Shown here: positions 6,928 through 7,632 of the stretch, one piece after another
How positions within the stretch are numbered: the first letter of the stretch is position 1
Layout: the number at the start of each line of letters is the position of its first letter
Source: a virus
Taxonomy: Duplodnaviria > Heunggongvirae > Uroviricota > Caudoviricetes
Strand: one strand, 5' to 3'
DNA length: 37,974 nucleotides
Virus record (IMG/VR): IMGVR_UViG_2778261505_000008
Coordinates: 1 to 37,974 of that record
The notes under the pieces: generated by a model
Told to the model about the DNA's origin: nothing
The model's input: only the letters and a program-made list of their open reading frames with translations
Databases searched by the model: none
Made by a program: the position numbers and the translations under genes

Positions 6928-7137
6928 AAAGAAGACTTCCAATAATCAGAACAAGTCGGCTCCTGTTTAGTTACGAGCGACATTGCTCCATGTATTCACT
7001 CGTTGGAATGAATACACAGTGCAGTGTTTATTAGTATGCCTGTCTTTTAACCACATCAGGCTCGGTGGTTCTCGTGTACCCCTACAGCGAGAAAAATAGT
7101 AAAATCCTCTTACCCCTACAGTAAGAGAGTGATTTAT

Positions 7138-7632
7138 ATGTCTGATGAAAAAGGAATAATAAGTAGGATTACAGATGCAGTTTCTGGTGCCGGAGGTGCT
7201 CTGATGAGTGCTGTTGGCGCAGTAAAGGAAATCCAGAAAATGCAAATAGACTACTCAGTAAAAGAAAAAACATACGAACTTGTCGATAAGCTCATGGATG
7301 CCCAACAGCAGCAAATGTCACTTAATGAGCTTTTGATGATTTCTAAGGACAAGATTATTGAGCTTGAAGAAAAGATAAATCGAGCCTCTAAGTGGGAAGA
7401 GGAAAAGAAAAACTATGAGATGTATACACCTACTGTTGCTACGGTGGTTTATCGTCTCAAAAAATCGGCAAATACCGGTCAGCCAATGCACTATCTTTGC
7501 GCTCAATGCTATGAATCTTCTGTGAAATCCATACTTCAATACGAAGGATTTGCACCACCTTCTTACCATAGGATGAGATGCCATAGGTGTAACGCCTCCT
7601 ATCTGTTCCCTAAATCCGCACTTTCTAAATAA
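7138..7632 (+). CDS. Rightward moron gene: coiled-coil protein with C-terminal Cys-rich zinc-ribbon-like motif (164 aa)
   Basis: ORF track 7129..7632 (+); ATG at 7138 with AAGAGAG about 8 nt upstream. C-terminus ...LCAQCYESS...[11 protein letters not shown]. Sits in the ral/sieB slot, opposite to the pL operon, and its 3' end overlaps the N 3' end by 8 nt. Confidence 0.6.

Follow-up and report, generated by a model that had tools for sequence, protein, structure and literature searches.

The rightward gene between ea10 and N of a lambdoid phage encodes Rip1, a known abortive-infection protein, behind a putative sieB-type regulatory cassette

Why should a gene within the leftward pL operon of a lambdoid phage point rightward and run head-on into the antiterminator gene N, and what does its protein do? 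We addressed this question in a single stretch of phage DNA (Caudoviricetes), the 37,974 nucleotides of IMG/VR record IMGVR_UViG_2778261505_000008, to which we refer throughout as the window. It represents a mosaic lambdoid phage or prophage that combines a P22-like morphogenesis module with a 434-type cI. A preliminary description had reported a 164-residue protein encoded on the plus strand, with a helical middle and a cysteine-rich C-terminus, and had guessed from the position of its gene that it serves in exclusion or defence. The genes and sites needed to place this locus are the following.

6514-6882, minus strand: ea10
6908-6929, minus strand: leftward intrinsic-terminator hairpin beyond the cassette described below (terminator scan), corresponding to tL2A in the HK620 annotation
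7138-7632, plus strand: coding sequence of the gene under study, rip1 (164 aa), with an N-terminal amphipathic helix, a long central helix and a C-terminal CxxC...CxxC domain
7625-7948, minus strand: N antiterminator gene of the lambda type (Pfam N36, E = 1.6e-26), convergent with rip1 and overlapping it by 8 nt
8059-8073, plus strand: nutL boxB (lambda nutL annotation carried by alignment), which in the plus-strand reading is a GC hairpin followed by TTAATTTTTA (terminator scan)

The open reading frame list gives this plus-strand frame as 7129-7632, opening with GTG at 7129. We take the true start to be the ATG at 7138 instead, because this methionine is invariant in all 20 aligned homologues, because the record of phage HK446 annotates the start of its rip1 at the equivalent codon, and because a Shine-Dalgarno sequence, AAGAGAG (7123-7129), lies 8 nt upstream of it. 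The same evidence bears out the claim of a rightward gene of 164 codons within the leftward operon. Its TAA stop occupies 7630-7632 and the TAG stop of N, on the minus strand, occupies 7625-7627, which gives the 8-nt overlap that had been proposed. Given the 2962 relatives found by profile search (E <= 1e-3, among 1.84 billion cluster representatives) and the solved structure of a protein 98% identical to this one, rip1 is a real gene and not a chance reading frame.

We found that the product of this gene is already known. It matches gp37 of HK446 (Rip1, YP_007111990) at 161 of 164 residues, and a phmmer search of PDB sequences returned chain 9oox_L, 'ring interacting pore 1 (Rip1)', at E = 1.3e-103; entry 9oox, released in February 2026, was solved by cryo-EM and shows HK446 Rip1 together with the small terminase of Enterobacteria phage T6. 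Structure prediction, one of the checks that had been suggested for this gene, agrees with the sequence match. The AF2 model (mean pLDDT 69.8, with low confidence for the N-terminal 25 residues) has helices at 7-34 and 39-90, which substantiates the helical middle, followed by a small beta-rich domain, and Foldseek aligns it to chain 9oox_M with E = 7.7e-17, a target-normalised TM score of 0.86 and an rmsd of 2.5 over 124 columns. The second-best Foldseek match has E = 0.76, and no match other than Rip1 falls below E = 0.7. The cysteine-rich motif also held up: the pairs C121-x2-C124 and C148-x2-C151 are 99-100% conserved across 165 diverse family members. The most hydrophobic stretch of the protein, residues 6-35, is amphipathic, with a helical hydrophobic moment of 0.33 compared with 0.16 in shuffled sequences (P = 0.02). 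The protein thus shares with the Rip1 family its homology, its protomer fold, its architecture of about 160 aa, its prophage-borne location and its antisense orientation to neighbouring lytic genes.

Family databases would not have led to this assignment. The PHROGs match is to phrog_1244 (E = 6e-53), to which no function is assigned there, and searches of Pfam, NCBIfam and PADLOC v2.0.0 with the rip1 protein gave no significant family. The best that Pfam offers is Zn_ribbon_4 at E = 0.042, far below the cutoff. This match could be taken to mean that the gene encodes a zinc-ribbon factor that binds nucleic acid or regulates transcription in the phage early region; as no curated family passes threshold, and as the protein agrees in fold and sequence with Rip1, which uses its C-terminal half to bind a protein ring, we regard that explanation as hardly credible.

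We are therefore highly confident that 7138-7632 is rip1, a prophage-borne, one-protein abortive-infection defence gene, under the sieB-type control that we propose below, and no evidence contradicts its identity as Rip1. The early guess of an exclusion or defence function was right. By its own terms, the preliminary description is nevertheless overturned by clear homology to a characterised protein, HK446 Rip1 being both characterised and structurally solved. The allele in the window adds only another copy of a published defence protein, and the practical value of recognising it lies in correct annotation.

The primary paper on Rip1 is Patel et al., Nature 651:1060 (2026), the content of which we give here as it is represented in a review (PMC13434031), a meeting report (PMC12908700) and a citing paper (PMC13601566), and in PDB titles. 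In these three articles, Rip1 is described as a prophage-encoded, single-protein abortive-infection defence that is harmless alone and is triggered late in infection. On these accounts, Rip1 assembles on small-terminase or portal rings of the invading phage to form a membrane pore, the trigger being the small terminase for E. coli phages and the portal for Pseudomonas phages. They also describe 12 Rip1 monomers surrounding an 11-mer small terminase, with the C-terminal half touching the ring and the N-terminal amphipathic helix forming the pore, which permeabilises liposomes and cells and leads to premature cell death. To judge from its sequence, the window protein fits this architecture, residues 6-35 being the counterpart of the amphipathic helix. 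The three substitutions relative to HK446 Rip1 (Y96H, Y143N and L162F) all fall within the half that contacts the ring, and the range of rings that trigger the window allele could therefore differ from that of HK446 Rip1.

Alignment with lambda shows what occupies the place of this gene elsewhere. Window positions 6500-7032 correspond to lambda ea10 and its flank, 7037-7122 to the 86 bp immediately 5' of lambda sieB (87% identity), and 7625-7974 to N, the DNA of which is 97% identical to that of lambda. From these blocks it follows that ral and orf28 are absent and that the sieB coding sequence has been replaced; rip1 is the one plus-strand open reading frame between ea10 and N. The assignment of the gene to the ral/sieB slot was thus correct.

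Given this position, the protein might itself be a SieB-type superinfection exclusion protein, that is, a functional analogue or distant homologue of lambda and P22 SieB that acts in the same way. Slot, strand and promoter cassette are indeed those of lambda and P22 sieB, and the product of HK620 hkaP, a relative with 26% identity, carries the annotation 'putative superinfection exclusion protein'. At the protein level the two part company. BLASTP found no similarity between the rip1 protein and lambda SieB (E = 9.4), SieB-family and Rip1-family genes form two separate components in clustering among the matches listed, and the N-termini of SieB proteins read as hydrophobic membrane segments, whereas the rip1 protein combines an amphipathic helix with a zinc ribbon in the Rip1 fold. 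We consider this explanation very unlikely. Homology to SieB is refuted; functional analogy, in the sense that SieB of P22 and lambda and Rip1 are alike prophage-expressed abortive exclusion proteins of unrelated families, is compatible with the identification as Rip1.

The convergent arrangement with N, which had been singled out as a peculiarity of this gene, is real and is not special to rip1. In lambda, sieB is likewise a plus-strand gene and meets the N stop with a gap of 0 nt, P22 sieB and gene 24 are 20 nt apart, and the rip1 homologues of Pantoea and Serratia share the layout. A convergent layout lacking a terminator is thus the standard design of the slot. We found no terminator-like site directly 3' of the rip1 stop in the terminator scan, in agreement with the preliminary description; the first such site on the plus strand is at 8059-8073, beyond N, and that it serves to terminate the rightward rip1 transcript is conjecture.

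The 8-nt overlap, together with the lack of a terminator-like site before 8059, might also be read as a sign that the locus is mainly regulatory, with rightward transcription or the RNA itself interfering with N or pL and the protein being secondary. Several observations argue against such a role: thousands of cluster representatives share the protein and its invariant cysteines, the defence activity has been demonstrated at the protein level, the convergent layout is common to sieB, and N is not transcribed in lysogens, where rip1 expression is expected and both pL and N are repressed. This makes a chiefly regulatory locus highly improbable. Regulation enters the identification as rip1 in another way, through the DNA upstream of the gene, where the following features were located by alignment or by pattern.

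7038-7070, minus strand: pair of interleaved helices (AACCAC/GUGGUU, GCCUG/CAGGC) within the 3' part of the sas-like RNA
7037-7143, minus strand: putative homologue of the P22 sas antisense RNA (by alignment), covering the rip1 start codon, Shine-Dalgarno sequence, 5' UTR and promoter
7075-7105, plus strand: putative promoter homologous to P22 P_sieB (by alignment), with -10 TAAAAT at 7100-7105 and a poor -35
7078-7087 and 7112-7121: the two copies of the direct repeat ACCCCTACAG, 34 nt apart, one on each side of the -10
7112-7137, plus strand: predicted rip1 5' UTR of 26 nt, its start placed by homology to P22, with Shine-Dalgarno sequence AAGAGAG at 7123-7129
7192-7206, plus strand: perfect internal Shine-Dalgarno sequence GGAGGT (7192-7197) and in-frame ATG at 7204 (codon 23), speculatively the start of an Esc-like short isoform

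In the GenBank record of P22, 29690-29720 is annotated as the promoter of sieB and 29727 as its RNA start site, and the latter aligns with A7112 of the window, the first base of the second ACCCCTACAG repeat. Homology to this mapped promoter supports the earlier suggestion of a promoter near 7100 and would put the rip1 transcription start at 7112. A generic sigma-70 scan did not call the P_sieB-like promoter of rip1, which was located only through the P22 homology; the -10 form TAnnnT is kept in all seven aligned loci. A hairpin at the predicted transcription start (7106-7128) was considered and dropped because it has no fixed register across variants.

The promoter belongs to a cassette of about 100 bp (approximately 7037-7137) that is conserved 5' of lambda sieB, HK620 hkaP and the Rip1 homologues of several genera, with flanks and cargo that vary. 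Its identity to P22 is about 87% over 85 nt, and the ACCCCTACAG repeats stand at fixed spacing in lambda, P22, HK620, Pantoea, Serratia and EcoM-689R2. The exact double-ACCCCTACAG pattern was found in at least 120 viral contigs by a pattern scan. Among the matches listed (about 126 instances), the gene behind the cassette belongs to the SieB family in about three quarters of cases and to the Rip1 family in about one quarter, with no third family; because the double-repeat pattern is strict, this sample is biased towards close relatives.

As a side observation, two kinds of cargo seem to be exchanged at the sieB slot behind a single regulatory module, and the slot can be marked as a defined exchange point for defence genes.

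In P22, the cassette also gives rise to an antisense RNA. Table 2 of PMC13397905 lists sas as a 127-nt RNA sequenced by RNA-seq, and the literature describes sas as shifting translation from SieB to the truncated inhibitor Esc, by which P22 escapes its own exclusion. The sas sequence is the exact reverse complement of positions 1185-1311 of the P22 locus (L131), and it extends from 5 nt inside the sieB reading frame, through both repeats, to past a structured 3' part. Its local alignment to the window spans 7149-7037, with 90 of 108 aligned bases identical; we drew the sas-like feature from 7143, because the 5' part of the alignment covers the beginning of rip1, where the sequence depends on the cargo and a match carries no meaning.

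Phages of several genera, whether they carry SieB or Rip1, preserve the two helices at 7038-7070. Over 21 sequence variants, pairing is kept in 96.5% of cells and compensatory changes occur at four pairs, values reached by none of 500 shuffles, and slid controls are 20-37% paired. The presence of five G-U cells against one A-C cell favours the minus-strand RNA as the structured molecule. The arrangement agrees with an H-type pseudoknot whose third loop is A-rich; alternative hairpins are a further possibility. Taken over its full length, the sas-like RNA has an unremarkable predicted folding energy (z = -0.99), and an Rfam scan of 6850-8250 gave no match above chance. A search for a minus-strand promoter of this RNA in the 5' coding region of rip1 found only a -10-like TATTAT with no -35, and the equivalent place in P22 has no convincing minus-strand sas promoter; the RNA may come from a promoter of its own or from processing of the pL transcript.

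The third component of the P22 system is Esc, translated from an internal start. The internal ATG of the window lies 66 nt past the main rip1 ATG, as compared with 72 nt for esc in P22, and SieB proteins have a conserved methionine at 22-26, a position comparable to codon 23 of rip1. This similarity needs to be interpreted cautiously, as the internal start is conserved in SieB, whereas in rip1 it has only a lineage-specific counterpart: the Shine-Dalgarno sequence and ATG at codon 23 occur only in E. coli alleles of the HK446 type, residue 23 is lysine in most homologues, and the Rip1 genes of Pantoea and Serratia and of the HkaP type have no internal start corresponding to codon 23. An Esc-like isoform of rip1 is thus a weak lead. 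To the extent that alignment can tell, the remaining elements of the P22 SieB/Esc/sas system and of lambda sieB (position, strand, promoter, RNA start and antisense-RNA cassette) all have their equivalents at rip1.

Taken together with the published work on Rip1, these features suggest how the locus may operate. In a lysogen, the 434-type repressor would hold pL off and rip1 would be transcribed rightward from the P_sieB-like promoter, with its start at 7112 by homology; Rip1 would build up harmlessly, as published for Rip1. Late in superinfection, the ring proteins of a foreign phage would nucleate a 12-mer Rip1 ring, the C-terminal zinc-ribbon half binding the phage ring and the N-terminal amphipathic helices forming a pore in the inner membrane, and the cell would die before progeny are completed. 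We carry the published mechanism over to the window allele on the strength of its 98% identity to HK446 Rip1. During the phage's own lytic growth, pL transcription would run antisense through rip1 and the sas homologue would lie over the rip1 ribosome-binding site, so that, on the P22 sieB/sas paradigm, new synthesis of Rip1 should stop.

The resident phage encodes ring proteins of its own.

19949-20443: resident small terminase, nearly identical to P22 gp3 (PDB 3p9a, nine chains)
21902-24118: resident portal of the Sf6 type (closest to Sf6)

Self-tolerance could arise in two ways: Rip1 may not respond to the resident rings, or the phage may be shielded by regulation. The T6 terminase ring in the Rip1 structure is an 11-mer, and the entry for the resident gp3 type, 3p9a, has nine chains. 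As to regulation, Rip1 made before induction would persist, so that stopping new synthesis by antisense RNA may not be enough to spare the resident phage. In a complete P22-type switch, a sas-like RNA fired from pL, with its pseudoknot-like 3' structure, would block the main rip1 start, and a codon-23 Rip1 without the first 22 residues of the pore helix could poison assembly, much as Esc inhibits SieB; the cassette of about 100 bp would then be a portable module in which SieB and Rip1 are exchanged. We put this forward tentatively and consider it possible though rather doubtful. If it is true, the sieB-type switch is how the resident phage avoids having its host killed via its own terminase or portal rings. 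The presence of Rip1 and SieB behind one cassette offers a testable idea for how self-killing on induction is avoided, and the putative regulation of rip1 by the P_sieB/sas cassette may bear on self-immunity.

HK446 Rip1 has the same length, the same slot between pL-operon genes and N and the same 8-nt overlap with N, and the DNA is 98.9% identical over window 6901-7974, upstream cassette included. The carriers differ: HK446 is classed in Hendrixvirinae, whereas the window carries a podovirus module resembling that of P22, in which the small terminase is of the gp3 type and the portal of the Sf6 type. As the same rip1 allele family is found in both, Rip1 coexists with different packaging rings.

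A more distant member is the HkaP protein of HK620 (NP_112049), identified as Rip1-family by profile search (hkaP at 2235-2729 of the HK620 locus, L004) and annotated in 2001 as the putative superinfection exclusion protein mentioned above. It shares with the window protein a length of 164 aa, the slot and the CxxC pairs, and the upstream cassette is 96.6% identical up to the ATG; protein identity, by contrast, is only 26%, and HK620 has an extra gene, hkaQ, before N. The correspondence of the leftward hairpin at 6908-6929 to tL2A is backed by the HK620 annotation and by 96.6% identity across window 6904-7140.

Prophage homologues in Pantoea, Serratia and Providencia, with 46-63% identity, are found in the same slot and orientation. 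The gap between the Rip1 homologue and N is 3 nt in Pantoea and 16 nt in Serratia, and the Providencia homologue is convergent with the repressor gene rather than with N.

Beyond the lambdoid phages, orf25 of the Mu-like Pseudomonas phage D3112 matches the window protein with 33% identity over 144 aa (E = 1e-27) and has the same architecture and the same antisense orientation to lytic genes; DMS3, JBD30 and MP38 carry its equivalents. Its position between the terminase subunit genes is that published for Pseudomonas Rip1. The Pseudomonas homologues differ in lying between the small and large terminase genes, with neither the sieB slot nor the P_sieB/sas cassette, and, as reported in PMC13434031, in that escape mutations fall in the portal and not in the small terminase.

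Two other systems were considered and set aside. Tab (Tail assembly blocker) of Pseudomonas prophages, the Methods of whose paper describe deletion of genes 30 and 31, was suspected on account of the Pseudomonas homologues until the PDB match to Rip1 appeared. TerI, described in a preprint, is a Listeria system unrelated to rip1.

Within E. coli, rip1 is common: 96 of 5426 complete genomes carry it, with 95-100% identity, in every case on the chromosome and usually overlapping N; the copy in NCTC9104 is 100% identical to that of the window. Among the matches listed, every row labels it 'hypothetical protein'.

Two further genes of the window deserve mention. On the minus strand at 8251-8655, a gene that occupies the rex slot, flanked by the 434-type cI and pL, encodes a 134-aa protein with a signal-peptide-like N-terminus. 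It belongs to phrog_2651 (no function given), resembles gene 38 of Sf6 according to the HK446 annotation, and has no Pfam or PADLOC match; we regard it as a candidate for a second prophage-expressed accessory gene. Near the right end, an open reading frame on the minus strand at 36510-37052 encodes a 180-aa protein resembling HNH or homing endonucleases and adjoins an ant-like gene at 35476-36399.
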